Shown: positions 822-54,617, counted from the first letter of the stretch. The stretch is 64,000 nt of DNA from Candidatus Sumerlaeaceae bacterium (GCA_019695055.1 JAIBAT010000074.1:1-64000); one strand, 5' to 3'. Notes: generated by a model from the sequence alone, not told the origin. A program made the numbers and translations.

Positions 822-2369
822 CTACCCGTTCCACCATTTGCGTCCATCCTTGTCGAGAAGCTGGTCGGCCGCTGCAGGCCCCCACGAACCCGCCGGGTAA
901 TTGGGAAACTCCCGGGGGGGTAGTGATTTCCACACATCCAAAATCGGGGTCGCAATCTTCCACGAGGCCATCACCATGTCGGCCCTGTGGAACAGCGTCG
1001 TGTCGCCCGTCATGCAATCGTACAGCAGGCGCTCGTACCCAGTGGCAGTGCTGCTGGAACCGAAGTCCCGGTAGTTAAATTCCAGCTTGACGTTTTGCAA
1101 CTTGATCACCGGCCCGGGCGTTTTTGCCTTGATCTGCATGGTGATCCCCTCCGTCGGCTGGATGTGCATGATCAACCGGTTGGGTTCAAGCTGCTGGACC
1201 GGAGTTTCATTGAACAGCATCAGGGGTGCACGCCGGAACTGGATCATGATTTCGGTCTTTCGCGTGGGCAGACGCTTCCCGGCCCGCAGATAAAAAGGGA
1301 CTCCCGCCCAGCGCCAGTTGTCTACAAACAGTTTAATGGCCGCGAAGGTCTCCGTGGCGGATGTCGGCGAAACGCGCGACTCGCTGCGGTAGCCGGAAAC
1401 AGGCTCCTCGCGGGATCGACCCGGTCCATACTGACCACGCACCGTCCGCTGCAGAACCTCCTCAGGGAGAAGCGGACGCACCGCCTGTAATACCTTTACC
1501 TTCTCGTTTCGCACCGACTCGGCCTCGAACGAAGCTGGTGGCTCCGCCGCAATCAGGGCCAGCAACATTAACATGTGGTTTTGCATCACATCCCGCAACA
1601 TACCGGCTTCCTCAAAATAGGGGCCCCTGTCCTCCACGCCAATGTTCTCCGCAACAGTGATCTGGACATGATCTATGTACCGGCGATTCCACACCGGCTC
1701 GAAGACGCCGTTCGCAAACCGAAACACAAAAAGATTCTGGACCGTCTCCTTCCCCAGGTAATGGTCAATGCGGTATATCTGACTTTCTTCCAACACCCCC
1801 GTGACGCGCCGATTGAGTTCCAGGGCCGATTCTGTGTCGTGGCCGAAGGGCTTTTCGATGATAACCCTGCGCCATGCTCCGTTTTCCTGTGTGGCAAGGC
1901 CGGCAGCGCCCAGGCGCTCCACGATGCTCCCAAAAAAGGACGGCGGTGTGGCAAGGTAAAACAGACAATTGCCGCGTGTATTGTGCCTTGGGGCCACCTC
2001 GTCAAGGCGCGCCTTCAGCTTGTCATAAGTGGCCGGATCGTCAAACTCGCCTGCACAGTAATACGTGCGTCTCGCAAAGTCCGCCCATATACCGGGATCA
2101 AGGTCTTGCGTGGCAAATTTTTGCATGTCCTCGCCAAGTTGGTTTCGGAATGCGTCGTCCGTAAGGTCGCGACGAGCCACGCCAACAATCGCAAAATCCG
2201 ATGGCAACAAACCGTAACACCGCAAGTTGTAAAGCGCCGGCAGCAGCTTGCGTTTCGTCAGGTCGCCCGATGCGCCAAAAATGACAATGGTGCAGGGATC
2301 GCCGGGGCACTCATCGCAATCATTACCGGAAGGCACCGGGGGCAGGGGATTGTCGGGGGGAAGGCTCAC
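822..2369 (-). CDS. zwf: glucose-6-phosphate 1-dehydrogenase
   Basis: 515 aa; G6PD signatures [15 protein letters not shown] (NADP site) and RIDHYLGKE (active site); start overlaps the gnd stop by 4 nt. Confidence 0.9.
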
Positions 2370-3352
2370 TTCTTCGCTCCAGGTTCAACATGTCCCCCAA
2401 ATTTCGACCGCATGGCGGAAAGCAATTTCTCGGCAAAGGTGTGCTCCTGTCGCGAGCGAAAGCGCGTGAAGAGCGCTGCGGACAACACCTCCGCCGGCAC
2501 CGCCTCTTCCAGTGCGGTCTGGATCGTCCAGCGCCCCTCGCCCGAATCCGCAACGGTTCCCGTGAAGTTCGACAGATCCGCATTCTCGGCGAGCGCCATG
2601 GCCGTCAGGTCCAGCAGCCACGAGCTTACCACGCTTCCGCGCCGCCACAGCTCCGCAATATCTGCCAGGTTAAGGTTGTAACGCTGGCTCGCCGGCAGCG
2701 ATTCCTGCGCGGCGCACTTCATAATGTCGAATCCCTCGGCATAGGCCTGCATCAGCCCGTACTCGATCCCGTTATGGATCATTTTGACGAAATGTCCGGC
2801 GCCGCTGGGTCCGCAGTATAAATAGCCCTCTTCCGCCGTGCCTGCCCTGCCGGCACGTTCCTTCGACGGCTCAATGCCGCTGCGCCCGGGTGCCAGTGTC
2901 CGAAAAATCGGGTCCAGGTGTTTGGCCGCCGATTCCGGCCCGCCGATCATGAGGCAATACCCCCGATCCGCACCCCAGACTCCGCCGCTTGTCCCCACGT
3001 CGAGGTAATGAATCCCGCTCTGTGCCAGCATTTCAGACCGCCGGATGTCGTCCTTGAAGAAGCTGTTTCCCCCGTCAATGAGCATGTCTCCGCGTTCAAG
3101 CAGATTGCCAAGATCCGCAACAACCGTCTCCGTAATGGGCCCCGCCGGCACCATCACCCAGACCGCACGGGGCGCGGACAACTGCGTCACAAGGGCCGCC
3201 AGCGAGTCCGAGCCAGTCGCGCCCAACAGGGCGAATTGCTTTATCGTTTCCGGATTATTATCAAACACCACGCACTGGTGGCCACCCGCCATGAGCCTCC
3301 GCACCATGTTGCCGCCCATGCGGCCCAATCCCACCATGCCTAGCTGCATCAA
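2366..3352 (-). CDS. gnd: 6-phosphogluconate dehydrogenase (decarboxylating), short ~300-aa form
   Basis: N-terminal Rossmann motif [19 protein letters not shown]; 6PGDH-like fold; proximal gene of the PPP cluster. Confidence 0.75.
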
Positions 3353-3424
3353 GAATTCTCCCGTTGCGTTACATCATGAAAGCGAAGCGCCGAATGAAAC
3401 GATTGCACATCGGCCTGTCGTACA

Positions 3425-4216
3425 TCAAGCCGCGGGCGGTGTCTTCTTCGCACCCGGGGTGCCGATCATCGCGTTCATCATTTCCAGCGGGAACGGAAAG
3501 ATGATCGTCGAACTCTTTTCCGCGGAAATCTCGGTGAGCGTCTGCAGGTATCGCATCTGCATCGACATCGGGTGTGCTGCCATCATGTCAGCTGCCATGA
3601 CCAGCTTCTCAGCGGCCTGATACTCGCCCTCGGCCCCGATGACTTTTGCCCGGCGCTCGCGCTCCGCCTCGGCCTGGCGGGCCATGGCGCGCTGCATCTC
3701 CTGCGGCAGGTCAACCTTCTTGATTTCCACAGCGGTCACCTTGATGCCCCAACTGTCGGTCTGCTTGTCGAGGATGGACTGGAGTTCCATGTTCAGCTTC
3801 TCCCGCTCCGATAGCAGGTCGTCCATTTCCTGCTGTCCCAACACGCTCCGCAATGTGGTCTGTGCCATTTGTGACGTGGCAAAGAAGTAATCCTCCACCA
3901 CCACAATAGCCTTCGCGGGCTCCAGCACCTGGAAATAAACGACAGCATTGACGTGAACCGACACGTTGTCGCGCGTGATGATGTCCTGGGGGGGCACGTC
4001 CAGCGTCACGATCCGCAGCGAAACCCGCCTCATTTCATCAATGGGCTTCCACACAATGATCAGTCCCGGCCCCTTCGGCTCCGGCAGCAGTCGACCGAGG
4101 CGGAAAATGACGCCGCGCTCGTACTCCTTCAATATCTTGATGCACGACAACATGTAAAAGACGACGATGATGATGGGTGTGAGCCACCAGTTTTCCATGA
4201 GAAGTCTGAAAATCAT
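3425..4216 (-). CDS. SPFH/band-7 (stomatin/prohibitin-like) membrane protein
   Basis: N-terminal TM helix, then SPFH core and a coiled-coil Ala/Glu/Arg-rich region ([21 protein letters not shown]). Confidence 0.65.
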
Positions 4217-4305
4217 AGCGCGGTCTCCCTGATTTTTAGTTTCATCGGAACCGTCCGACAGCCACCGGCCTTATGCCAGAAAATTCCGCGCCGGAATTGG
4301 GCGCA

Positions 4306-7300
4306 TTAGTCGTCCACCAAATCCTGCACGAACACCTCGATGCGATCCACGGTGAAATTTCCGCCTTCCAATGGCGCATTCACGCCAACACTGAGCGTGT
4401 CCAGCAGGTCGCAGGCAATCCGCAGATCTCGCCGCGATGTGCCGCTGTCTCCCGGCCCCGGATCGCCGTAGATCTTCGGCATCTTGCTGGTCAGGGTTCC
4501 GCCTATCTCGGGCCGGATGTCTGGGTTCAGCGGTGTGTGGAAAATGTGGGTATACCAGCCACCGGCTTCCAGTGCGGTCCGTTCCGGGTTCAGGCACCCA
4601 ATTCCCGGCAGCAACTGCTGCGCAATGGTCGCGTTGGCGCCCGGCGTCGAGCCACCGGTACTCCAAGCCCCGCCGATCTCGAATTTGTTTCCCCAGCTAA
4701 ACCTCACCGTCCGCGACCGCATCCGGAATTGTGCGTTCATGTTGCTCGCCTGGGTCGAGGTGATGTGCCAGCGCACCTTGTACTGCTTCCCCTCCTCGAC
4801 GCGCAGGTAATCTGCGGCCGTTACGTCGCTACCCGGATTCAGCTCCCGCGTCACCACCGCCAGTCGGTTCGCCGGCACCAGCGTCGAGTCCATCGTAAAC
4901 CCGAAGTTCCCCTCGCTGTAAGTCGGCAACGGCGTGTTGGGATCGCTATCCACGGTCGCCGGCAGCGTGGGATCAGCATTCAGGATGAGATTCTGGATTT
5001 GCGGATCACCGCCCCCATTCGCAGCCAGGTTGCCCGGGGTTAGCAACGTCGGGGCAAACACCTTGTCCGGCGTGTTGTCATCGAGTGCGGACTTGGGATA
5101 AGTTCCAATCCAGGATTCCGCCATCGCAATGTAACCATTGTCCTGCGGATCGATGGCATAGGCCTCAAACCCTCGCTGAATGCCCTCGAAACTGGCGTTC
5201 GAAGCAAGGTATGGCACGTCCACCGGGTCAAAATCCACACGGTAAAGCGAAGGCCGCGCGGACTGGTTTGTGGGCCGAAGCTCCAAGGACCACTGCTGCG
5301 TGGTGCTGTCGGCGTTCACATGGCTGAAGACCTCCAGGATGGACGCCTGCGCGAATCGCGTGCTCAGCCGGCACCGGAAACTCGGGATCGTGTTGAGCAG
5401 GGCGGGATTTGTCTGCCCCCCCGTAAAGATATAGTATTTCCCGCGGACATAGTTGGCCACCCCAACCGCCGAGTATGGCAACCACTCTGTCTGCGCGGCC
5501 AGCACCCCGGTGACACGAAGCCGCGAGGCACTGGCACTTACATTTCCGCGATAGGAGGTCGTGCCAGAATCGTAACTGGGATTGGCCAACCCCACCTGAT
5601 TGGTCCCAAACGCCACCCATCCAGTATCGGCCCCCGGCGCCTGCACCGCCCCGGTCTCGAACTTGTCCCTGCGCGCGAAATCCACCGTCGACGCCAGCCG
5701 GGCAAGGAAACCGTCCGTGTCACCCCCACCAAAGGTACCCTGAAACGGAGTTCCGCCAGTCGGGAAAAGTCCCGTCGTCATTCCCCCCACATAGGCGTTG
5801 AAATTCGCATCCACCAGGATGGCCATCGGCGTGTCGTCACCCGCGCCCCCGAAGTAAGTGGAGTAGCGCAGGTTTTTCATCGTGGAATCGAAACTCGCCA
5901 CAAACCCGTCCACACCCGCGGCCCGCGAACCCTGGAAAGCATTCTCCGTGGGCAGGTTGTTCGAGCTCGTGGTCCCCGCAAAATACACACTATTGTCCGA
6001 GCCGATAGTCACACACTGGGCCGCGTCGCTGTTGTTTCCACCAAAGTACGTGGAGGCTATCAGGTCATCGCCCGCTGGCAGAAACCGCGAAACAAACGCA
6101 TCGTAAGTACCGCCAGCCTTGTTGGTTTGAAATTCATTGGTAACAGGATAATCCGACGAGGCAGTATACCCCACAACCACGGGCGCAGAAAACTGCGCGT
6201 CCACCGCCACCCCGGTACCTACGTCCTCGCCCGTCCCACCCAGATAGGTGGAATAGGTGAAATTGCTGCTTGGCGATGACGGAATTTTCGTCAGAAACGC
6301 ATCCGTCCCTCCATTCGCGAAGGAATCATACGCGTTGCGCGTTGGGAACAGCGTCGACTTGGTGAATCCCGTCACGTACGCACTGCCGCCCGTATCCAGC
6401 GCAATGCCAAGCCCGGCATCCTCGCCATCCCCGCCAATAAACGTCGAGTAGGAAAGGCTGCTGTCCGAGGCCTTGATGCGTAGCGCAAAGGCATCGCCAT
6501 TGGTTCCATAGAAACCCTGAGGGGCATTCTTGGTCGGCCAATCCAGAGAGAAGGTTTCACCCGTGATGTAGGGATTGTTTAAGCTGTCGAGCACCAGCCC
6601 ATTCGCCACATCGTTGCTGCCGCCGCCGATGCGATGCGAGTACAGGCCGGACGAACCAGCCGCATTCAGCTTGGCAATGAAGCAATCCATGCCCCCAAGG
6701 GGGCCGAACGTCTTTGAAACCGGAAAATTGGCGGACGCCGTCGAACCGCAGATATAGGCATTGCCACTCGAATCAATGGCGATGCCGTTGCCCTCGTCCG
6801 CGAGGCTGCCACCCACATAGGTCGAGTAAACCAACGCTGCTGCGCCAGCCACACCAGGCGTCAGCTTCGTCACGAACGCGTCGCCACCCGTGTTATAGGT
6901 GGTATCGTAGCTGCCCGCCTTCGTGGGGAAGGCCGTTCCCGCGGCGCCGGTGGCATAAATGGCCCCAGTCGAGTCCACGGCAATCGCATGGACCTCGTCG
7001 TTCCCCGTCCCGCCAATATAGGTGGAGTAAGCCAGCACCGGGTCAATGACCAGCGGTCGGGTCCGGTCGTAGTCCCCGACCCGCAGCCCAACGCAGCCCC
7101 CCTCCCCAAGGTCATAGCGGGCCTCCACCATGGTTCGCCCGGCCACGCCAGTCTGGTAGGCAACGGGCTTGTGCATCACAAGATCCCGTCCGCCCAAGGC
7201 GACAACAAGGTTTCCCCCGCTGTCGAGAGACAACCCACGTGCCCCGTCGATCGCCAGCGCGATGGCCGCCGGATCAGCATTCGGCGACACTTCAAAATCA

Positions 7301-20513: not shown

Positions 20514-20763
20514 CCTACGCGGTTGAAATCCTGCGCTCTGCGCAGAAAGAACTCGCCGCCATCGAACCCGTGCAACGGGATCGGATTATCGAAGCCATCA
20601 GGGCACTCTCCGAGAACCCGCGTCCACCTGGCTGCAAAAAGCTGTCTGGACGGAATGCCTGGCGAATTCGAACAGGGCGTATCGGGTGATTTACGAAATT
20701 CATGACGGGAAGCTGTTCGTTCTCGTTGTTGCCATCGGCCATCGCCGGGAGATTTATCGCTAA
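20510..20763 (+). pseudogene. RelE/ParE-family toxin, disrupted by a -1 frameshift
   Basis: N-terminal part (...LSGRNAWRIRTGR, stop at 20687) and C-terminal part (YRVIYEIHDGKLFVLVVAIGHRREIYR, stop 20761-63) lie in different frames; joined they give the RelE motif RIRxGxYRVIY. Confidence 0.6.
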
Positions 20764-20813
20764 ACCCCACTACTTGGGAGATGCCTCCGCTCCGCCATAG
20801 TCCTCTGAATAAT

Positions 20814-21022
20814 GAACATTGCCTGCGACGCGGGTTGCCGCTGGCTACGCTGGATGAGAAGCTGCGCGCGGCGGCGGGGAGGTTGGGGGTGGTGGTGTTT
20901 GAGGGGTAGCGGGGGAAGGCTAAGGGTTTGTTTGAACGTTCAAGCGTGCTGGCCCTTTAGTTACTATTGGATAGTCGGTGCCAGAAAAGTTGGCTGTCCC
21001 CTTAATTCTGTCCCCTTAATTC
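20814..21022 (+). repeat. direct repeat copy 1 (vapC 3'-end remnant plus downstream non-coding), ~90% identical to 24395-24599
   Basis: Encodes ...RRGLPLATLDEKLRAAAGRLG (PIN C-terminus) in one frame; ends with a tandem gtccccttaattc duplication. Confidence 0.8.
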
Positions 21023-21100
21023 TTGCGATTACGGTTGCTTCTACGAGCTGAGAATGCTTCATGGGGAACCTTCCCTAAATCGGAGGAAGAAAGTCGAGTT

Positions 21101-24076
21101 GTGAACCGATTGTTTTTTGTCGGGGCTGCGATTGCTGGAATGACTTTTTTAGGTCTTCCAGTGCCCGCTATCGCATGCTGGGATGGAGTTTCTTTGGACG
21201 GCTCCTGCCCCATTGAGCGTGCCCGCCTCGCACTTGCCGGCAAGTCCAGGTCCGAAAAAATTACAGGCCTATCCACCGCCGTGATGGCTCGCGCCGGCCT
21301 GAAATTTGAGGGCCGCTCGATTTCCGCCATCCCTAACGGCGCAATCCTCACCGAAGTCCGTTCCCTCAAGACGGACAAAACCGGCGAACCCACCGACCTC
21401 GCAATCTACCTCGACCTCGGCGACGATTTCGTCTACAGCCCGCAGCTGACTCCATACAGGCTTTCCCGAATCGGCGGTGAATTTGTCCACGCCTTCACCG
21501 AGGAAGGCATCAGCGGTTATTTCCTTTACATATACGACCCCCTCACGGGTGAGTTCCTGGAGCCCGACCAGCTTTTGCCCCCGGAAGAGCCGCCCAAATA
21601 CGTCCCGGAAACCGACCAGGCCACCGTGGACATGGCCAAGGCCGCCGGAAAAACCATTAACCCGGATGTCAGGGTTGTTCCCGTGATCAATCCCGGCCAA
21701 CCCCAGGGCTCACTTTCCGGCCGCACCGTGTTTATCAATCAATCCCACGGCTGGTTTGACGACGTGGACTTTGGCCGATGGCGCGTCCAGAGGGGAAACA
21801 CTTGCTCCGGCATGGAGGACCTCAGCAGCGCCGAGTTCATCAACGAGTACGTCATGCCGATGCTCCGCAACACCGGCGCCAAGGTCATGACCGTCCGCGA
21901 GCCGGACACCCAGACAGCCATGCTTATTGTGGACAACAGCGACACCGGCGCCGGTCGTGCCGACGGACGCTACTTCGAAACAGGAACCTGGTCCAACAGC
22001 AGCATCGAGGGCTTCAAGCAAAAGACCACCGCCTCCTGGACCGGCACCTCCATCAACCCCTTCAGCCAGGGCACCGGCCAGAACCGCCTTTCTCCCGCGC
22101 TGACCGCCGGCACACCTACTGGAACTGCCAATTGGGTCGCAAACATCCCAGCCGACGGCTATTATAACGTCTACGCCAGTTGGTCCCCCTTCAGCGGACG
22201 CGCCAACGACGCCCAGTATCTCGTCTACCACAGCGGTGGCGTCAGCGAGGTCCGCATGAATCAGAAGATAGATGGCTACACCTGGGTGTTGCTTGGAAAT
22301 TGGTACTTCGAGGCCAGCGCCCCCGAGAGCGAACGCAAGGTCGTCCTGACCAACAAGAGCAGCGACGGCACTGGGGTGAACGTCTCCGCCGACGCAATAC
22401 GGTGGGGCGGCGGCCTCGGCGATATGGCGCGCCAGACCCACGGCGTTAGCGGCCGGCCGCGATGGGAGGAGGAGGCCGTCAATTACCTCCAATTCACCGG
22501 CTTCGGACGCAGCGGCGACCTCTACACCGGCACCGACGACGAATCCGGAGGCTGGGCCGACCGCCCCCAGTATGCGCGGTGGGAACACTCGGGCAAGGAT
22601 GGGGGCGTCGAGGACGCCGTTTACGTGGCCTGGCACACCAACGCCTTCAACGGAACATCGGGCAATTGCGACGGCACCGCCCAGGGTCTCTCATCCTTCC
22701 GCCACAGCACAGCCACCACCGACTCCACCACTTTGCAAACCATCATGCATGACAAGCTTTACAATCACATCGATACCCTTTGGTTCACGGCTTCCACGTG
22801 GCAGGTTCGCAGCAAGAACGTGACCAATTTTGGCGAAAACAATCAGTCCAGCCTTGGCAGCAACCTCCCGGGATTCCTCCTTGAGGGCCTTTTTCACGAC
22901 AACACCGACGACACCAATGCCTATCAGGACCCCCGCTTTCGCAAACTGGCCGCCCGTGCCTTTGCGCACGGCCTGATAGACTACTTTAACCAGCGCGACA
23001 GCACCACCCGGCCCTACCCGCCCGAGCCACCCCTCAACTTCCGGGTGGAAGCTCTCGGCGGCACCAGCGTCCGACTCTCCTGGACCGCCGGCGCCAGCGG
23101 CGGATTCAACGGCGCCGCCGCCACAAGCTACAAGGTATTCCGCAGCCGCAACGGATTCGGGTTTGACGACGGCACGGTGGTCAACGGCCTCACCGTCACC
23201 CTGACCGACGCCCCCACCGACCGCGTCGAGTACTACCGCATCTGCGCGGTCAACACCGGCGGCCAGAGCTTCCCCACCGAAACCCTTTGCGCCATGAACG
23301 GCGCCGGCAGCCAGGTCCTGATCGTGAACGGATTCGACCGCAACCAGACCAGCCTCGCCCCAACCCAGACCATCACAAATCTCGGAACCGTCCGCCGCTT
23401 CGACGAGCGGCTCTTCCAGGGCTACAACTACATCATCGAGCACGCCGAAGCCCTTGAACCCCTCGGCCTGCGCATCAGCAGCTCGTGCAACGAGCGCGTC
23501 GCCGACGGCACCACCGCCCTCGGCGGGTTTGCCGCCGTGTTTTGGATCTGCGGCCAGGAGTCCACCAGCGACGACGCCTTCAACAGCTCTGAAATCTCCC
23601 GCGTGACCACCTATCTCTCCGGCGGAGGCCGCTTCTTCGTCAGCGGCTCGGAAATCGGCTGGGATCTCGGCCGAAGCGGCGTCAGCAGCGCCGCCGACGT
23701 CACCTTTTACAACACCGTCCTGCGGACCGCCTACTCCAGCGACAGCGCCGGCACCTACAATCTCTCCAGCACCGGCATCTTCTCCGGCCTCGGCTCCTTC
23801 AACTTCAGCCCCGCCTCCGGCGCCCGCTATGCCACACCCACCCCCGACGTAATTTCCCCATCCAACGGTTCGACAACCATCCTGAGCTACTCCGGAGGCG
23901 TCGGCGGAACCGCCGCCGTCGCCTACAACGGAACCTCCCGAGTCATCTCCCTCGGATTTCCCTTCGAAACCATCAGCAGCAAACTCACTCGCGAAGCCAT
24001 GATGCAGTCCACCGCCACCTTCTTCGGCCTAACCTCCGGCCCACCGGCCTCCGTCCAGGATTGGAAAAAGTTCTAA
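21101..24076 (+). CDS. secreted N-acetylmuramoyl-L-alanine amidase (Amidase_3)-like protein with an inserted beta-sandwich domain and an FN3 domain
   Basis: Signal peptide; Amidase_3-like blocks (TVFINQSHGW, AVYVAWHTNAFNG...GLSSF, PGFLLEGLFHDNTDDTNAYQDPRF...AHGLIDYF) split by a ~250-aa insert (GYYNVYASWSP...YLVYHSGG...GYTWVLLGNWYF, golvesin-like); FN3 (PPEPPLNFRVEALGGTSVRLSW); start taken at GTG 21101 (ORF-track TTG 21023 lies inside the repeat). Confidence 0.5.
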   Translation: MNRLFFVGAAIAGMTFLGLPVPAIACWDGVSLDGSCPIERARLALAGKSRSEKITGLSTAVMARAGLKFEGRSISAIPNGAILTEVRSLKTDKTGEPTDLAIYLDLGDDFVYSPQLTPYRLSRIGGEFVHAFTEEGISGYFLYIYDPLTGEFLEPDQLLPPEEPPKYVPETDQATVDMAKAAGKTINPDVRVVPVINPGQPQGSLSGRTVFINQSHGWFDDVDFGRWRVQRGNTCSGMEDLSSAEFINEYVMPMLRNTGAKVMTVREPDTQTAMLIVDNSDTGAGRADGRYFETGTWSNSSIEGFKQKTTASWTGTSINPFSQGTGQNRLSPALTAGTPTGTANWVANIPADGYYNVYASWSPFSGRANDAQYLVYHSGGVSEVRMNQKIDGYTWVLLGNWYFEASAPESERKVVLTNKSSDGTGVNVSADAIRWGGGLGDMARQTHGVSGRPRWEEEAVNYLQFTGFGRSGDLYTGTDDESGGWADRPQYARWEHSGKDGGVEDAVYVAWHTNAFNGTSGNCDGTAQGLSSFRHSTATTDSTTLQTIMHDKLYNHIDTLWFTASTWQVRSKNVTNFGENNQSSLGSNLPGFLLEGLFHDNTDDTNAYQDPRFRKLAARAFAHGLIDYFNQRDSTTRPYPPEPPLNFRVEALGGTSVRLSWTAGASGGFNGAAATSYKVFRSRNGFGFDDGTVVNGLTVTLTDAPTDRVEYYRICAVNTGGQSFPTETLCAMNGAGSQVLIVNGFDRNQTSLAPTQTITNLGTVRRFDERLFQGYNYIIEHAEALEPLGLRISSSCNERVADGTTALGGFAAVFWICGQESTSDDAFNSSEISRVTTYLSGGGRFFVSGSEIGWDLGRSGVSSAADVTFYNTVLRTAYSSDSAGTYNLSSTGIFSGLGSFNFSPASGARYATPTPDVISPSNGSTTILSYSGGVGGTAAVAYNGTSRVISLGFPFETISSKLTREAMMQSTATFFGLTSGPPASVQDWKKF

Positions 24077-47466: not shown

Positions 47467-50304
47467 TTACCCGTTGCTCTCCAGGGTCACTTCGAGCTGC
47501 TCCATCATGTAGGCCTCGACCACATCGCCAACTTTGATGTCGTTGTAGTTCGTAATGCTGAGACCGCACTCCTGGCTTTCGGTCACCTTCTTGGCGTCGT
47601 CCTTGAAGCGCTTGAGGCTCGACAGCGTTCCGTCGTAAATCACGGCGTTGTCTCGCAGCAGGCGGATCTTACTGTCGCGGTTGATTTCGCCGTCCGTTAC
47701 GTAACACCCGGCAATGGTGCCGAGTTTCGAGATTTTGAAGAGCTGGCGGATCTCCACGTGGCCGGTGACCTTCTCCTGGAACTTCGGTTCCAGCATGCCG
47801 ACCATGGCCTTGCGCAGGTCCTCGATGAGGTCGTAGATGATGCGGTAGAGTTTGATGTCCACGCCCGTGCGCGCCGCCATTTCGGTGGCAGATTGCTCCG
47901 GACGCACGTTGAAGCCAATGATGATCGCGTCGGACGCGTCGGCCAGGTTCACATCGCTGTCGTTGATACCGCCGACGCCGCTGTGCAGTATGCGGATACG
48001 CACTTCATTGGAGTTAAGCTTTTCGAGGGATCCCGCAACAGCTTCGATGGAGCCCTGAACGTCGCCCTTGAGGATGATGTTCAGGTCCTTCATTTTACCC
48101 TCGGCGATAAAGTCGTGCAGGCCCTCGAGAGTGACGTGCTGCTTTTGCGGTGTGAGGCCAGCGGCACGGCGACGGAACTCGCGCTTCTCCGCAATTTCGC
48201 GCGCGAGCTGCTCGTTCTCGACGACGACGAACTGTTCGCCGGCACCGGGGCTGCCGCTGAGACCGATAATCTCGGCGGGGAAGCTGGGTCCGGCCTCCTC
48301 GATGGGGCGGCCGTGGTCGTCGTTCATGGCGCGAACGCGACCGCTGATGTCGCCGACGACAAACTCGTCGCCGACGCGCAGCGTACCGCGCTGGACAAGG
48401 ATGGTGGCAACCGCGCCGCGAGCCGGGTCGACGTGGGATTCCACAACGATACCGACAGCGCGGTGGCTGGGGTCGGCCTTGAGTTCAAGAACCTCGGCCT
48501 GCAGGCCCACCATTTCGAGCAACTGCTCGATACCGGTGGCCTTCTTGGCGCTGATCTCCACAAAAATGGTTTCGCCGCCGAACTCCTCGCTGACGAGGCC
48601 GTGTTGCAAGGCTTCCTGCTTCACACGGGCCGGGTCGGCGCCGGGGAGGTCAACCTTGTTGACCGCGACCACGATTGGCACTTTCGCCGCCTGGGCGTGG
48701 TGGATGGCCTCAATGGTTTGTGGCATAAAGCCGTCGTTGGCCGCCACGACAAGGATGACAATGTCCGTGACGCTGGCACCACGGGCGCGCATGGCCGTAA
48801 AGGCCTCGTGGCCCGGGGTGTCAAGGAATACGATGTTACCGCGTGACGTCGGCACGTGGTACGCGCCGATGTGCTGCGTAATGCCGCCGAACTCGCCCTC
48901 GACGACGTTCGACTTGCGAATACGGTCGAGCAGAGTCGTCTTTCCATGGTCGACATGGCCCATGATGGTGACCACGGGCGGACGACGAATCTGGGATTCG
49001 GCGGTGCTGACGGGCATAAACTTCTCGATGTCGCCCTCGTCGGTCTCCTTGATGATTTCGAGATCAACATTGAACTCGCCAGCCAGCAATTCCATGTGCT
49101 CGGGCGAGATAACCTGGTTCACAGTGACCATTTCACCAAGCATGAAAAGCTTTTTAATGACCTCGGTGGACGGCACCTGGATTTTTTCGGCAAACAGGCC
49201 GAGAGTGACCTCGCCGGTGATGGAGACACTGCGTCTGGGCAGCTCAAGGGTCCCGCCCTCCGGCGTCGGCTCATAGCCCACGGACGAACCACCACCACGG
49301 CGACCATCGCGACGACCACCTCGGCCAAAGGCACCACCCTGGTGGGCTCCGGGCCCGGGTTTGCCCGTACGCGGGCGTGACGTTTGCCGCATATCCTCAT
49401 CGAGTTCGAAAATGCGGGTTGGCGTGGGCTTGCGCCGGTCCTTCGAGGCTCCGCCCTTCTTTTTGTCGGGCTTGCGAGCGCTGGGCTTGTCGGCGCGCAT
49501 CACGCCGATGGTGGGCAGATTGGCCTCGGTCAACTGGACTGGGCGCCCTCCGGATTCACCGCGGCGCGGCGGACCACCGGCACCCTGGGGCCGCGGCGGA
49601 CGCTGGGCCCCCGGACCGCCCGGACGTTGAAAACCGCCCTGGCCTGGCGGGCGCTGGAACCCACCCTGGCCACCACCGGGACGCGGACCTGAACCCTGTG
49701 GACGTGGGCCGCCACCGGGTGCTCCACCCTGACGGGGCGGGCCAAAGGACGGGCGCGGACCTGTGCCTGGTGGGCGCGGGCCGGCTGGACGCTGCTGGGG
49801 TTGGCCCGTTGGGGCATCAGAACTTGTTTGGGGGGCGCGGGGCGGCGCACCCGGAATGGGCCGGAATCCAAGCGAACGTAAGCGCTCGGCTTCTTCGGCG
49901 GCGTGCTTGCGGGCCTTTTCTTCCTCTTCGCGGCGCTTGCGGTCTTCCTCGGCGCGCTGGCGGCGCTCTTCCTCGGCTTTGCGGCGGGCCTCCTCTTCGG
50001 CCTTACGGCGCTCTTCCTCTTCGGCCTTGCGCTTTTCTTCGAGCTGGCGGCGGCGCTCCTCCTCCTTGCGGCGGCGCTCCTCCTCCTTCTTGAGGCGCTC
50101 TTCCTCCTTCTTGCGCTCTTCCTCAAGCTCCTTGGCCTTCAGGTCGGCCTTATACTTGTCGATATGGGGCATCAGCTTGCGAACATCCTTGTCCTCGATG
50201 TTCGCGCTGGCGCTGGCCTTGATGGCAACGCGGTGCTTCTTGGCGATGGCTAATACGTCCTTGCTTTCAAGGCCGGTGGCCTTCGCTAGCTCAAAAACCC
50301 TCAT
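47467..50304 (-). CDS. infB: translation initiation factor IF-2
   Basis: 945 aa; charged Glu/Arg/Lys-rich N-terminal region; G-domain [12 protein letters not shown]...DTPGH...NKVD. Confidence 0.95.
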
Positions 50305-50721
50305 TCAGTGATCCTGTCGATCCGGCGGCGCGCACAGGCGCGCCATAATATGTTAACTCACGACAATGAAGCATTGGGGTGGTACACAGGCCGGTCGGTG
50401 ATTCGCGCGGCTGACTCCCGGGGAGAAGGTGGGAGAACGCCAAGGCGCGGAAATCGGAAGGGATGACGCAGGGAAGGAAGCGGGTGGGCTGGGTGCGTAT
50501 TTCGTGCGGTCGCCGTTCAGCTTTCCATGTGTCGTCCCTCGACCTTACAAGTCTTTGTAGCCATTTCCATGTCTCATGCCGAGTGAGACATACCGCGCGA
50601 GCCGCCAATTCCTTCAATGGCAATGATTTGTCGCGGTTTCGGGGGCAAAATTCCGTTTGCGGGGCGGGGGTGGGGACGTTCTAAGCAGGTCAGGATTTTT
50701 CACCGACGGAGACACTGGGCC

Positions 50722-51684
50722 ATGCCACTGCTGTTTGACCTGCCACTGAAGGAACTTCACAAGTATGGGGGGAGAAACCCCAAACCCGCGGACCACGAGG
50801 AGTATTGGGAGCGGGGACTGACCGAGATGCGGGCCACGGACCCGGCACCCGAGTTGATGCCGGCGGAGTTTCAGGTGCCGTTTGCGGATTGCTTCCACCT
50901 CTATTTCACAGGGGTCGGCGGAGCGCGGATCCACGCCATGTTTCTGCGCCCCAAGGCCCCCACCCAGCCACACCCAGCGGTTCTAATGTTCCACGGCTAC
51001 ACAGGTCGGGCCGGCGAATGGCACGACAAGCTGGGGTATGCGGCCATGGGTTATACCGTTGCTGCCATGGATTGCCGCGGGCAGGGGGGAAAATCGGAGG
51101 ATGTTGGCGGCGTAAAGGGCACGACCCACAAAGGGCACATCATTCGTGGCTTGGATGGGCCACCTGACCAGATGTTGTTCCGGCAGGTTTTCCTGGATAC
51201 GGCGCAGCTGGCGCGGGTTGTGATGGATATGGAGGATGTGGACGCGGCCCGGGTAGGGGCGCTCGGCAGCAGTCAGGGAGGAGGCTTGACGTTGGCCTGC
51301 GCGGCGTTGGAGCCGCGGATCAAACTGGCCGCGCCGGTCTTCCCCTTTCTATGTGATTACCAGAGGGTTTGGGAAATGGATCTGGCCAAGGAAGCCTATG
51401 AGGAGTTGCGTTACTACTTTCGGATGTTCGACCCCCTCCACGCGAGAGAGGACGAGGTTTTTTGCAAATTAGGTTATATTGACGTTCAACACCTTTGTCC
51501 TCGAATCAAAGCCAAGGTAAGAATGGCCGTTGGACTTCAGGACCAGATTTGCCCGCCATCGTCCCAGTTTGCAGCCTACAATAAGATCAAGTCTGATAAG
51601 AGCCTGATTCTTTACCCCGATTTTGGGCATGAGAACCTGCCGGGGTGCGTGGACGGGATTATGCAGTTCATGCAGGAGTTGTAA
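50722..51684 (+). CDS. acetylxylan esterase / cephalosporin-C deacetylase (CE7)
   Basis: AXE1 family; GSSQGGGL nucleophile elbow; C-terminal HE pair (PDFGHENLPG). Confidence 0.75.
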   Translation: MPLLFDLPLKELHKYGGRNPKPADHEEYWERGLTEMRATDPAPELMPAEFQVPFADCFHLYFTGVGGARIHAMFLRPKAPTQPHPAVLMFHGYTGRAGEWHDKLGYAAMGYTVAAMDCRGQGGKSEDVGGVKGTTHKGHIIRGLDGPPDQMLFRQVFLDTAQLARVVMDMEDVDAARVGALGSSQGGGLTLACAALEPRIKLAAPVFPFLCDYQRVWEMDLAKEAYEELRYYFRMFDPLHAREDEVFCKLGYIDVQHLCPRIKAKVRMAVGLQDQICPPSSQFAAYNKIKSDKSLILYPDFGHENLPGCVDGIMQFMQEL

Positions 51685-51734: not shown

Positions 51735-52601
51735 TCAAAGCCCGGCGTAATAGTCGTAACCGCGCATGGCCCAGTAGTCGGGCGGGCGCTGGTTTGTGAA
51801 CCGGAGGGCTCCGACACATTTGAGACTCTTGATGCCGTATTTGACCGGCACGGTGAGGCGAAGAGGAGCGCCGTGGATGGGTTCGAGGGGCTGGCCATTC
51901 ATCTCGTAGCACAGAAGCGTCTGGGGGTGGAGGGCGCTCTTCATGTCCAGGCCGACGAAGTACTCGCCATCAGGGGTCATGGCTGACAGATAAGCAGCCG
52001 TATTGATGTTGGGATGGGGTGAAGAGAGGAGTCGGGCGTCCGCGGTGGCCAGGGGGAATCTGGCAGCCAGGTCGGAGACGCGAGCTCCAGCCCAATGGAC
52101 GACTTCGCTCCACCCTTCGATGCAACAGAGCCGGGTGACCATCTCGACGCGGGGCAATGCCTGAATGTCGGAGAGAGAAAGAGTGATGGGCTTGGCCGGA
52201 TCTGTGAGGCCAAAGACGTTTAGGGCCCAATCGATGCCCAGTTCGTTCTCCAGACCGATGGTTCCATTGGCCCGGGGCATCCTTGCCTGAGACTTTGAAT
52301 ACTCGGGGGACAGCCGGGAAAGCGGGGAGAGGGCGCCGGCCACGTTTCCGTTAAGGTTAAGCACTTTACGCAGGGGCCACGGAATGCCATCGTCGTTGGG
52401 GCGCGTGCGCAACCACTGCCATCCAGAGACGGCTGCGATACCCGCGCCGGCGGCAATCAGGAATCCACGGCGGGATGTTCGGCTTGTGAGGCGCTTTGCA
52501 TCCTCTTCGGGCAACCAATCGTCAGGGTTTAATACTTGATTGCTTTGATAGCTCTCCTCTGGATCAAGCTTTTTGTTTTCAGCTGTTCGTGGATCAGTCA
52601 T
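51735..52601 (-). CDS. sulfite-oxidase-family molybdopterin oxidoreductase (MsrP/YedY-like), Tat-exported
   Basis: Twin-arginine leader SRRGFLIAAGAGIAAVSGW; Mo-pterin oxidoreductase domain. Confidence 0.65.
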   Translation of the reverse strand: MTDPRTAENKKLDPEESYQSNQVLNPDDWLPEEDAKRLTSRTSRRGFLIAAGAGIAAVSGWQWLRTRPNDDGIPWPLRKVLNLNGNVAGALSPLSRLSPEYSKSQARMPRANGTIGLENELGIDWALNVFGLTDPAKPITLSLSDIQALPRVEMVTRLCCIEGWSEVVHWAGARVSDLAARFPLATADARLLSSPHPNINTAAYLSAMTPDGEYFVGLDMKSALHPQTLLCYEMNGQPLEPIHGAPLRLTVPVKYGIKSLKCVGALRFTNQRPPDYWAMRGYDYYAGL

Positions 52602-53298
52602 GGCTGGCCTCTGGTACGGCAGGTTGATTCCAGTTAGGTTCCGACTCTCGAATGAACTCTCGACCGATGATCATCGCGCGGAAGTTGTTCCAGCCAGCCT
52701 TGACGACTTGGGCCAGGTGGATCAGAATGAATAGAACGTAACCAATCGTGAGCGCGAAGTGCTCGAGGCGGGCAGCCTCGTAGCCGCCAAGGAGATTTGT
52801 CAACCAAGAAACCTGGACTGGCTTGTAAATGGCGAGACCGGTCACGAGGGATCCGAGGCCCATAAGGATAACGCCGGTATAAGCGAGGCGCTGAGCGCCG
52901 TTGAACTTGCGGGGGGGCAGGGGTTTCTTCGTGAGGTGTAGGTCGTGGAGGACAACATGGAAGGCCTCGGCAAGGGTTTGGCGATTGGGCAGGAGGTAAC
53001 GCCATTCTCCGGAGACAAGTGTGTAGCCGACATAGACGAGGCCGTTCAGGGCGAACAGCCACATAAAGGCGAAGTGCCACGCCATCCCTTCGGCGAGGCG
53101 ATGGTCAAGGTGGAGGAGGTCGTAGAACTTCTCGGGGAAGAACTTGAAAAGGACGACGCTGCCGAACTGGATTCGGTACACGTCGTTGGCCCAGTAGATG
53201 AGGAGCCCGCTCCAGATCATAATGGCGAGCACGGGGACGTTGAGCCAGTGGGAGAGCCGGACGATGAGGGGGTGCTTGCGTTGGAGGCGTGCTTTCAT
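52594..53298 (-). CDS. b-type cytochrome membrane subunit (Ni_hydr_CYTB/PhsC-like)
   Basis: 4-5 TM helices with conserved His (RLSHWLN, HFAFMW, HLAQ); stop overlaps the MsrP-like start. Confidence 0.6.
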   Translation of the reverse strand: MKARLQRKHPLIVRLSHWLNVPVLAIMIWSGLLIYWANDVYRIQFGSVVLFKFFPEKFYDLLHLDHRLAEGMAWHFAFMWLFALNGLVYVGYTLVSGEWRYLLPNRQTLAEAFHVVLHDLHLTKKPLPPRKFNGAQRLAYTGVILMGLGSLVTGLAIYKPVQVSWLTNLLGGYEAARLEHFALTIGYVLFILIHLAQVVKAGWNNFRAMIIGREFIRESEPNWNQPAVPEASHD

Positions 53299-53395
53299 GG
53301 GTTTGGCCTTTTGGGGATTCGGGGATAAGACAAGACGGGAGAGTCGGGAGTGCCCGGACAAGAGTGTCCGGGCCACAACCATAGCTTCCCTCTTG

Positions 53396-53812
53396 TTACA
53401 TCTTGCCTTTCGGGTCCATTTTTTCAGCGTCCTTTGACATCTTGTCGCCAGACATCTTGTCGCCAGACATCTTGTCGCCAGACATCTTGTCGCCAGACAT
53501 CTTGTCGCCAGACATCTTGTCAGCCGGGATGGGGGCGCCTCCCATGCGGGCTCCGCCCATGCGTCCGCCGCGAGCTTCCATCTGCTGCTTCATTTTGAAG
53601 AGCGCGGCCTTCATCTGCGAGGCGTCGTTGCTGGCGATGGCCTCATCGATCATCTTCATGGTTTCCTCGCGGCCCATGAAGGGGGTCGATGTCGTGGGGG
53701 TGTCCTTCATGGCGGCCTGGGGCTGTTCCTCTTTCGAGTCATCCGCGAGACAGGACGTGGTCGTCAGGCAGGTCGCGGCAATGACGGCCGCGGTCAGGCA
53801 TTTGGCAAACAT
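53396..53812 (-). CDS. Met-rich periplasmic repeat protein (MrpX-like)
   Basis: GGAGGA Shine-Dalgarno 7 nt upstream; signal/lipobox-like N-terminus; (DKMSG)x6 plus RMGGARMGG; about 17% Met. Confidence 0.5.
   Translation of the reverse strand: MFAKCLTAAVIAATCLTTTSCLADDSKEEQPQAAMKDTPTTSTPFMGREETMKMIDEAIASNDASQMKAALFKMKQQMEARGGRMGGARMGGAPIPADKMSGDKMSGDKMSGDKMSGDKMSGDKMSKDAEKMDPKGKM
53436..53525. repeat. 15-bp tandem repeat x6 (gacatcttgtcgcca)
   Basis: Perfect copies 1-5, variant copy 6; encode DKMSG repeats on the minus strand. Confidence 0.95.
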
Positions 53813-54041
53813 CAGTAAATCCTCCGTGGTGTTCCAGTGGTGTGGAACGGTTTGGTGTGTCGGTGTGGCCATGGTGTCACGGACCGCGGGGCCTCCGGCG
53901 CATGCTCCGGCGCCCCTGAGTATCCGTCATTCATGCGCCGGGATTTGGTCGGGATACAAGGCGAATCCCTTACAGGAGAAATTCGCTCGACCAGTCCCGG
54001 AGGCGGCAAACCCTTGCAAAATGTGAGGCTGCCGGTGAATA

Positions 54042-54617
54042 ATGGCCTACACTAATCATTGTCTGGTTCGAGGTTTTTGCATTCTCTGGTGTGCAAGAGG
54101 CATTGGGAGGCTTCGGGTCGTGAGCAGGTTGAGGTTAATATTGATTGCGGCGGCACTCGGAAGTTTTACAGCGGGCGCCTGTGCGGCGCCGACGGTGACT
54201 GAGGCAATGGCAGTGTCGACTGTTTCGGCGCCAAAGGAAACCCCCACAAAACCAGCCGAAATAGCAAAACCCCAGAAACCAAAACCCGAGCCGGTGACAA
54301 TGACGCCAGACATTGAAATCTGGCTGGGCGAAAAAGTGGGTCGCTACGGCGACATGGAATTCGAGATTCAGGGCGGCATGCCGGAATTCCCGACGCCGAC
54401 CGGCGCTTTCCAGATCGAGTGGAAGAATCGCGACCACTTCTCAAAGCAGTGGCAGGCGCCGATGCCCTATGCGATGTTTTTCCACAACGGCGCGGCGATC
54501 CACGTCGGCCCCTTATATGGCGGCAGCCACGGCTGCGTGCGCGTAAGTGAGTCCACGGCGCGATATTTGTTTGGTCAAACAAAGGAGCAGGTAACGCGGG
54601 TTTTTGTGTACCCGTAA
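54042..54617 (+). CDS. L,D-transpeptidase (YkuD domain)
   Basis: C-terminal catalytic motif GGSHGCVRV; start uncertain. Confidence 0.7.
   Translation: MAYTNHCLVRGFCILWCARGIGRLRVVSRLRLILIAAALGSFTAGACAAPTVTEAMAVSTVSAPKETPTKPAEIAKPQKPKPEPVTMTPDIEIWLGEKVGRYGDMEFEIQGGMPEFPTPTGAFQIEWKNRDHFSKQWQAPMPYAMFFHNGAAIHVGPLYGGSHGCVRVSESTARYLFGQTKEQVTRVFVYP

Follow-up and report, generated by a model that had tools for sequence, protein, structure and literature searches.

A methionine-rich exported peptide encoded with a cytochrome b and a YedY/MsrP-like molybdoenzyme in a Candidatus Sumerlaeaceae bacterium: a probable envelope methionine redox-cycling module

Analysis of a 64,000-nucleotide stretch of DNA from a Candidatus Sumerlaeaceae bacterium (GCA_019695055.1 JAIBAT010000074.1:1-64000; hereafter the window) revealed three co-directional genes on the minus strand at 51735-53812, encoding a small exported methionine-rich peptide, a membrane cytochrome b and an exported molybdenum (Mo) enzyme (Table 1). 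An earlier note, made from the sequence alone, had read this trio as genes for an MrpX-like Met-rich peptide, a b-type cytochrome and an MsrP-like Mo enzyme. Our follow-up confirmed the coordinates of all three genes and the overlapping or adjacent ends that had been described: the stop of the cytochrome b gene and the start of the Mo enzyme gene overlap by 8 nt (52594-52601), and 97 nt separate the peptide gene from the cytochrome b start codon at 53298. It also supported the core of the reading through scores nearest to MsrP for the Mo enzyme, Met-rich peptides recurring beside the same gene pair elsewhere, and MsrA, MsrB, redoxin and sigma factor genes as neighbours at related loci. The peptide gene is contiguous and co-directional with the other two, as MrpX-type systems require, and the genes flanking the trio are oppositely oriented, namely a convergent acetyl-xylan-esterase (AXE1) gene at 50617-51684 and a divergent YkuD L,D-transpeptidase gene at 54042-54617.

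The start of the cytochrome b gene needed revision. The mechanically called open reading frame (ORF) begins at an ATG at 53382, which has a good Shine-Dalgarno (SD) sequence and lies 13 nt from the peptide gene. However, this ATG is deleted on the 713-bp contig L081, which carries a homologue of the peptide gene, while the start equivalent to 53298 (MKARLQRK) is kept in L081 and in other homologues. We therefore preferred 53298; the longer version is probably extended by 28 codons too many.

Table 1. Coordinates of the three genes and of the repeats and putative structural elements at the locus
Feature	Position	Strand	Description	Basis
Met-rich peptide gene	53396-53812	minus	138 aa, Sec-exported, Met/Lys/Asp/Gly-rich repeats, MrpX/BcrX-like	ORF, SD, composition, homologue
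Cytochrome b gene	52594-53298	minus	234 aa, four-helix, presumably di-haem	PF01292, conserved start, invariant His
Mo enzyme gene	51735-52601	minus	288 aa, Tat-signalled, YedY/MsrP-like, sulfite-oxidase fold	PF00174, MsrP score, 1xdq match
Tandem repeat	53436-53521	minus	perfect 15-bp x 5.7, encodes DKMSG units	Tandem Repeats Finder, 100% matches, score 172
Degenerate repeat	53529-53571	minus	15-bp x 2.9, encodes GGRMGGARMGGAP	Tandem Repeats Finder, 78% matches
Inverted repeat GTTCCA-N6-TGGAAC	53831-53848		5' leader, immediately upstream of peptide SD	sequence and stem-loop scan
Stem-loop	53352-53373	minus	9-bp GC-rich stem, 4-nt loop, no U-tract; in peptide-cytochrome b spacer	

The peptide gene is preceded by an SD sequence (GGAGG, 53821-53825) 8 nt 5' of its ATG and encodes an N-terminus resembling a signal for general secretion (Sec), consisting of MFAK, a hydrophobic stretch and a CLA/DD boundary (GLA/DD in L081). 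The mature peptide of about 115 aa would contain 17 Met (17/115, 14.8%; 13% for the precursor), 34.8% charged residues (D/E/K/R), two aromatic residues and neither Cys nor His. The described repeats were thus recovered, with the presumed (DKMSG)x6 array resolving into five DKMSG units and one DKMSK unit in frame, and the RMGGARMGG segment lying within the degenerate repeat, and the estimated length of ~140 aa was close, but the estimate of ~17% Met was too high. Nevertheless, the peptide has the character of the MrpX type, i.e. a small exported low-complexity protein of Met and charged residues, and its ORF shows the highest Met fraction among all window ORFs of at least 60 aa. No Pfam or NCBIfam family passed its threshold for the peptide: TIGR02953 (penta_MxKDx) matched the repeat region only, with 13.3 bits and E = 0.061 at a cut-off of 41, and a Pfam hit to DUF1843 was disregarded (18.2 bits, cut-off 23.3). 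The homology search (the earlier note had proposed one against MrpX homologs) returned a single homologue (72% identity) among 5.8 billion proteins. Its gene on L081 is likewise followed immediately by that of a near-identical cytochrome b. With one homologue only, the peptide is classed by composition and context and not by homology.

A perfect tandem repeat, a copy number that differs between the two known alleles (six units in the window, two in L081) and the lack of any family above threshold would also be compatible with a non-coding 15-bp microsatellite, located in an intergenic leader and open by mere chance. The repeat number does vary, as anticipated for such an element, but it does not do so freely, as the sole difference in array length amounts to 60 bp and stays in frame, and the start codon, SD sequence and signal peptide are all kept in L081. 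Comparison of the two genes over 117 codons gave dN = 0.072 and dS = 0.73 (nonsynonymous and synonymous substitutions per site), hence dN/dS = 0.10, with all aligned Met retained; this substitution pattern contradicts a microsatellite, and analogous genes occur at 22-24 other loci (see below). We consider a fortuitous reading frame extremely improbable. Based on the dN/dS ratio, the conserved Met and the top Met fraction in the window, the Met-rich ORF is a protein-coding gene under purifying selection despite its varying repeat number.

The Mo enzyme, 100% identical to an NCBI entry from a Candidatus Sumerlaeaceae bacterium, contains PF00174 as its only Pfam domain (96.6 bits) and ends right after it, lacking both a dimerisation domain and the C-terminal extension of MsrP. 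Its signal for twin-arginine translocation (Tat) has the motif SRRGFL, of which R44-R45-x-F47 is invariant, and C160 and E162, both invariant in 60 homologues, align with Cys102 and Glu104 of YedY (1xdq). Scoring against NCBIfam models gave 93.1 bits for MsrP, 37.5 for SorA, 36.2 for SorT and 22.2 for SoxC, at cut-offs of 207 (MsrP equivalog NF003767), 600, 570 and 420 bits, respectively. The sequence search of the PDB placed E. coli YedY (1xdq) first with E = 2e-21, followed by the next entry at 1.5e-7, and Foldseek with the AlphaFold model (mean predicted confidence, pLDDT, 81.5) ranked 1xdq/1xdy (YedY) on top and sulfite oxidases thereafter. Profile alignment (hhalign) with E. coli MsrP yielded 38% identity over a 151-column core only; in the MsrP query of the profile comparisons, only precursor residues ~111-275 were verified against the 1xdq alignment. 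The Mo enzyme is therefore nearest to YedY/MsrP and not to the sulfite dehydrogenases. A grouping with SorA, which had been named as grounds for abandoning the reading, was not borne out by scores and domains, as the enzyme falls far below the SorA, SorT and SoxC cut-offs and carries no C-terminal dimerisation domain of the sulfite dehydrogenase/oxidase type.

For the cytochrome b, PF01292 was the only Pfam match (59.5 bits, cut-off 30.1), and four helices were predicted. His17, His75, His180 and His194 are invariant in 47/47 homologues, which corresponds to the di-haem pattern of PF01292 with its four conserved His on helices 1, 2 and 4, and the protein presumably binds two haems. The canonical partner of MsrP, MsrQ, has six helices, a ferric-reductase domain, one haem and flavin mononucleotide (PMC12525009), a description that the window protein does not fit. 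Both systems nevertheless combine a Tat-exported enzyme of the sulfite-oxidase fold, with the same Mo-ligand Cys and neighbouring Glu, with a membrane haem protein that supplies electrons. In contrast to canonical MsrPQ (E. coli YedYZ), the trio pairs its enzyme with a four-helix PF01292 protein with four invariant His instead of the six-helix MsrQ; compared with MsrP, the window enzyme is without the C-terminal ~55 residues and differs in its N-terminal segment, and no dedicated Met-rich peptide is encoded in the operon of E. coli K-12. The route of electron entry thus probably differs from that of canonical MsrPQ.

Cytochrome b and Mo enzyme also occur as natural single-chain fusions (P0119 and P0085), in which a twin-arginine motif is retained inside the chain and a hydrophobic helix separates the domains. 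Such an arrangement suggests a fifth membrane helix and a combined Sec/Tat-type insertion, a mode known for actinobacterial Rieske proteins.

Three characterised systems with the same components were available for comparison, of which that of uropathogenic E. coli (UPEC) CFT073 could be compared directly by sequence. Here, c3566-c3568 lie upstream of hlyCABD and are co-transcribed with it under control of the OrhK/OrhR two-component system, and c3566/c3567 protect against peroxide and macrophages (PMC8550376). In RefSeq, c3566 is labelled a cytochrome b/b6 domain protein, c3567 a molybdopterin-dependent oxidoreductase of 247 aa and c3568 a hypothetical protein of 80 aa, and our analysis revealed a PF01292 cytochrome b, a short PF00174 enzyme and an exported Met-rich peptide (c3568; 35.2 bits on TIGR02953 against the cut-off of 41), i.e. 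the set of parts seen in the window. Both halves of c3566 belong to PF01292 and matched the window cytochrome b with E = 5e-10 and 6e-14, while c3567 and the window Mo enzyme share 29% identity (E = 1e-26) in an alignment of 252 aa that takes in the N-terminal region. Reciprocal hidden Markov models (HMMs) of the two enzyme families gave 99-102 bits over nearly the full length, compared with >400 bits within each family and 62-89 bits, for the core only, with E. coli MsrP. The UPEC locus differs in that the peptide gene comes last and in its two-component regulation. The c3566 gene (20552-21150 of the CFT073 locus, C_RS16930) is a frameshifted pseudogene in RefSeq, consistent with the two overlapping ORFs that we saw, and yet the published study reports deletion and complementation phenotypes for it.

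The closest likeness in gene order is offered by bcrXQP of Brucella melitensis, in which a Met-rich exported peptide, a membrane haem protein and a periplasmic Mo enzyme follow one another as in the window. The genes are co-transcribed, induced by hypochlorous acid (HOCl) and contribute to HOCl resistance, under control of the extracytoplasmic function (ECF) sigma/anti-sigma pair BcrS/AbcS (PMC8315932). By description, which is the basis of our comparison with Brucella, its peptide is annotated as an MXKDX-repeat protein, in contrast to the DKMSG/RMGG repeats of the window peptide with its 13 bits on TIGR02953, and the adjacent sigma/anti-sigma pair is absent in the window. TIGR02953 itself comprises small signal-peptide-bearing proteins of Met/Lys/Asp pentapeptide repeats and is in this respect similar; however, its register is M-x-K-D-x, whereas Lys directly precedes Met in the peptides linked to the module described here.

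In Azospira suillum PS, HOCl oxidises MrpX, which is then reduced again in vivo (PMC4436054), and Melnyk et al. noted that such YedY genes are widespread and often adjoin genes for MrpX, sigma/anti-sigma factors, msrA and msrB (PMC4436054). The YedY1-YedZ1-MrpX system resembles the trio in combining an exported Met/charged peptide, a Tat-exported PF00174 enzyme and a cytochrome b of the di-haem class. This comparison was made from the publications, and Azospira belongs to a different phylum from the window bacterium. The peptide gene appears last in Azospira (Dsui_0156-0158 in the table) and first in the window, and the regulators SigF/NrsF include an NrsF-type anti-sigma factor (PF06532), whereas related loci of the window trio encode ZAS/RsrA-like anti-sigma factors and none lies beside the trio itself.

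The earlier note had taken the Ni_hydr_CYTB-type partner as the mark of a variant of the Azospira system, which did not hold: the Azospira 'YedZ' (YedZ1, Dsui_0156) is listed as a PF00033 cytochrome b in the authors' own table (PMC3884062), c3566, the neighbour of the MrpX homologue c3568, is a PF01292 protein, and Brucella has the same gene order. We accordingly dropped the idea of a new cytochrome-b-coupled variant. Coupling to a cytochrome b is the norm for the MrpX-linked systems that were checked (UPEC by sequence, Azospira by table) and no novelty of the window. In published descriptions both C3566 and BcrQ are treated as MsrQ homologues, although c3566 belongs to the PF01292 cytochromes b, and no explicit link of PF01292/cytochrome b561 with MsrP and Met-rich peptides was found in the literature.

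The gene pair was then surveyed with one genome scanned per species. With 562 confirmed matches, the scan gave 80 loci, and the lineages represented are Sumerlaeota, Planctomycetota, Bacteroidota (Hymenobacter and others), Acidobacteriota, Abditibacteriota, Armatimonadota, Chlorobiota and Actinomycetota; a search with the family profile yielded 308 clusters (50% identity) at E <= 1e-30. The cytochrome b gene lies directly upstream of the Mo enzyme gene in 78/78 loci with upstream DNA, covering about eight phyla, so that the pairing is obligate. Recurrent neighbours include exported MsrB (directly upstream of the cytochrome b gene in Abditibacteria), MsrA, TlpA-like redoxins, ECF sigma factors and small RsrA-like zinc anti-sigma (ZAS) proteins, as well as sigma-54 activators near the module in Planctomycetota; one further neighbour cluster consisted of antisense ORFs from greedy longest-ORF calling and was ignored. 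ECF sigma and ZAS anti-sigma genes are found at loci such as L012 and L034. L012, from the cultured Abditibacterium utsteinense LMG 29911, presents at 1173-5193 a co-directional series of ECF sigma factor, RsrA-like zinc anti-sigma factor, exported MsrB, cytochrome b, Mo enzyme and Met-rich peptide. In L034 (Chthonomonadaceae), the order is anti-sigma, sigma, anti-sigma, TlpA-like redoxin, cytochrome b, Mo enzyme and peptide. Regulators of the kind that the earlier note had suggested looking for were thus found at related loci and not within ~10 kb of the window trio.

At 22/80 loci (24 under relaxed criteria), a gene for a signal-peptide-bearing Met-rich repeat peptide lies no more than 350 nt from the pair and shares its strand, compared with 0.17 loci expected from the flanks (Poisson P ~1e-38, for loci that are not phylogenetically independent). 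These peptides represent several unrelated sequence types from four other phyla and are always co-directional with the pair. In Planctomycetota, they are encoded upstream and include lipoproteins such as (GAMDKGKMDG)n; downstream genes encode peptides with a CxxC core in Abditibacteriota, (HGKMM)n-like peptides in Armatimonadota and peptides in Blastocatellia (Acidobacteriota) that even contain DKMSG. Pooled, the module-linked peptides consist of 20% Lys, 20% Met, 15% Gly, 10.5% Asp and 9.5% Ser, with aromatic residues nearly absent. Lys stands directly before 264/405 Met (65%) in 26 peptides (window, L081 and the 24 loci), and Asp, Ser or Gly usually follow. All module-linked peptides are encoded by in-frame DNA tandem repeats with periods of 15-45 bp, always multiples of three, and the related-locus peptides scored 0-28 bits on TIGR02953, under the cut-off of 41. 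The peptide component thus appears to have been reinvented repeatedly, its composition being kept, with a Lys-Met signature, while its sequence was not.

Further Met-rich proteins were seen at some distance from the pair. In an Abditibacteriaceae metagenome-assembled genome (L021), an exported protein of 348 aa with ~35% Met is encoded 1 kb downstream of the module (5702-6748), beside a 112-aa peptide with ~30% Met (41% in the mature form) at 4922-5260; both carry the Met-rich theme to an extreme. Two Hymenobacter loci encode exported (KMxDG)n peptides 2.5-3.4 kb from the module (L035 8075-8434; L068 113-436, minus strand), and no such peptide was found within the 4-kb flanks of the remaining ~33 Hymenobacter loci. 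A match of the L035 peptide to HvfA, precursor of a ribosomally synthesised and post-translationally modified peptide metallophore, was judged a low-complexity artefact (24/95 bits), and the M-domain of Ffh (SRP54), encoded beside many Hymenobacter modules, was a false positive of the Met-rich screen, as were its antisense ORFs.

Considering that the four closest relatives of the Mo enzyme with known context (L001, L083, L084 and L085; 61-65% identity) lack a peptide gene beside the module, as do all ~35 Hymenobacter loci, the peptide must be regarded as an accessory that the module can do without, and the enzyme must act on other substrates. This raises the question whether the cytochrome b-Mo pair acts as a general envelope reductase, for Met sulfoxide (MetO) in any protein or for small S- or N-oxides, or as an oxidase of another substrate, with the Met-rich gene as a recent lineage-specific neighbour that has no dedicated partnership. 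The one detectable peptide homologue and the perfect repeats at DNA level, which point to recent expansion, would agree with such a scenario, as would the first characterisation of E. coli YedY as a weak S-/N-oxide reductase (PMC13488963). However, unrelated Met-rich exported peptides stand immediately beside the same module in the four other phyla, co-transcription and function are established for the same set of three parts in Brucella and UPEC, and purifying selection acts on the window peptide gene, every aligned Met of which is conserved. In addition, general MetO repair would be compatible with, and not opposed to, a partnership with the peptide. We thus consider a pair without a dedicated peptide unlikely. 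The caveat that the Met-rich ORF might not be conserved in relatives was thus partly borne out, as the four nearest ones lack it, while at 22-24 of the 80 loci other peptides adjoin the pair.

We concluded that the trio is, with a probability of roughly 0.7, an envelope Met/MetO redox-cycling module of the MrpX-YedY1Z1, BcrXQP and C3566-C3568 type. This assignment rests on the domains and motifs of the three proteins, the proximity of the Mo enzyme to YedY/MsrP, the match to UPEC, the published functions of the known systems, the linkage across the 80 loci and the natural cytochrome b-Mo fusions. The trio would then be a distant, non-proteobacterial member of a known system, most likely serving quinol-driven Met/MetO cycling against oxidants. 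In such a module, the Sec-exported and probably disordered peptide would display 17 solvent-exposed Met in a Lys/Asp/Gly/Ser context and sacrifice them to strong oxidants, among them HOCl, chloramines and peroxides. Reduction of the resulting sulfoxides back to Met would fall to the Tat-exported Mo enzyme, with the four-helix cytochrome b moving electrons across the membrane to the Mo centre, presumably from quinol through two b haems. The net effect would be the detoxification of oxidants outside the cytoplasm at the expense of respiratory-chain electrons, and the Mo enzyme would probably repair other oxidised envelope proteins as well. Substrate, oxidant, electron donor and regulation are all what we infer for the module. 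The Rhodobacter enzyme RsMsrP favours MetO residues that are clustered in unfolded regions of polar character (Lys/Glu/Asp/Gln; bioRxiv 10.1101/243626); this preference matches the polar, Met-clustered composition of the window peptide and was counted in favour of this assignment.

Several observations weigh against it. At 14.8% Met and 35% charged residues, the window peptide remains somewhat below the 20% and 44% of Azospira MrpX, and it is not a member of TIGR02953 (13 bits). The MsrP score of the Mo enzyme, 93 bits, is well under the 207-bit equivalog cut-off and covers model positions 100-266 of 320 only, and outside the core the N-terminal ~60 aa of the mature protein, like the C-terminal ~55 aa of E. 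coli MsrP, lack a counterpart. With only 29% identity, the enzyme and C3567 belong to separate subfamilies. The peptide gene is missing in the four closest relatives and next to the Hymenobacter pairs, as discussed above, and no sigma/anti-sigma pair or other stress regulator is encoded within ~10 kb of the trio in the window.

The composition of the peptide also brings metal binding to mind, which the earlier note had mentioned as well. Regularly spaced Met in a flexible polar chain are also typical of Cu(I)-binding Met-rich domains (PMC11494321, PMC12041951). The peptide could accordingly be mainly a periplasmic Cu(I)/Ag(I) buffer or chaperone that binds the metal through thioether ligands, in the manner of Met-rich segments in CueO, PcoA/CopA and CusF, with the Mo enzyme and the cytochrome keeping the Met ligands reduced or being unrelated to it. 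The Armatimonadota peptides add His (HGKMMHGKM; 5-8 His each) and thereby resemble Met/His copper motifs. In contrast, the mature window peptide has neither His nor Cys; neither the window nor the set of neighbours recurring at the 80 loci includes copper-resistance genes (P-type ATPase, multicopper oxidase, CusCFBA or CopC/D); the peptide matched no copper-protein domain of Pfam or NCBIfam; and the homologous systems respond to HOCl or peroxide. A primary role in metal binding is, in our opinion, quite improbable. As CusF, a copper chaperone of E. coli, is repaired by MsrPQ during copper stress (PMC9302797), the metal and redox-sink readings can coexist.

Beyond the assignment to a known type of system, it is possible, although well short of probable, that the window-type clade constitutes a separate MsrP-like branch that is wired, as the MrpX-linked systems of Proteobacteria are, to a di-haem quinol-type cytochrome b in place of the FMN/haem protein MsrQ, and that repeatedly recruited 'Lys-Met' peptides, or generated them de novo by in-frame repeat expansion, as renewable extracellular antioxidants. 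This clade comprises ~300 clusters (50% identity, E <= 1e-30) over Planctomycetota, Bacteroidota, Acidobacteriota, Armatimonadota, Abditibacteriota and Sumerlaeota, with some of its peptides tethered as lipoproteins. The Lys-before-Met signature might reflect chemistry, for example a relay from Lys chloramine to the neighbouring Met, or a steering into the Mo active site.

Two elements outside the coding regions could contribute to expression of the trio. The arms of the inverted repeat in the 5' leader are conserved in L081, while the spacer differs; the element is a candidate operator or leader hairpin. The stem-loop between the peptide and cytochrome b genes is also present in L081, and the 106-nt spacer folds at -35.4 kcal/mol (z = -2.9). 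As an mRNA-stabilising or processing element, it could boost peptide output relative to the enzymes, and it may thereby uncouple the abundance of the peptide from that of the enzymes so that the peptide is in excess. Scans for promoters and terminators returned none on the minus strand for the trio and were judged uninformative, and tRNA and Rfam scans of the window found nothing.

The genes within ~10 kb of the trio have envelope and housekeeping functions (YkuD, S13 peptidase, polysaccharide flippase, PASTA protein, IF-2 and AXE1), and at a greater distance there are genes for an Ada-type regulator, a GGDEF protein and a hybrid kinase. The IF-2 gene (47467-50304, minus strand) encodes an unusually long N-terminal low-complexity region of ~330 aa, rich in Glu/Arg/Lys and Pro/Gly, which generates several long spurious ORFs on both strands.

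Overall, the earlier interpretation was right in substance and wrong about what makes the locus special. The gain is incremental, with no new principle and no new kind of system beyond those already known from Azospira, Brucella and UPEC. It does clarify a point that is blurred in the literature, as the membrane partner in the MrpX-linked systems checked is a PF01292/PF00033 cytochrome b and not a ferric-reductase-type MsrQ, and it identifies Abditibacterium utsteinense LMG 29911 as a cultured organism with the full sigma/anti-sigma/MsrB/cytochrome b/Mo enzyme/peptide cluster that can be used for experiments. If the assignment is correct, defence by a sacrificial Met-rich peptide and a Mo-dependent sulfoxide reductase would extend from a few Proteobacteria to Sumerlaeota and at least four poorly studied phyla.

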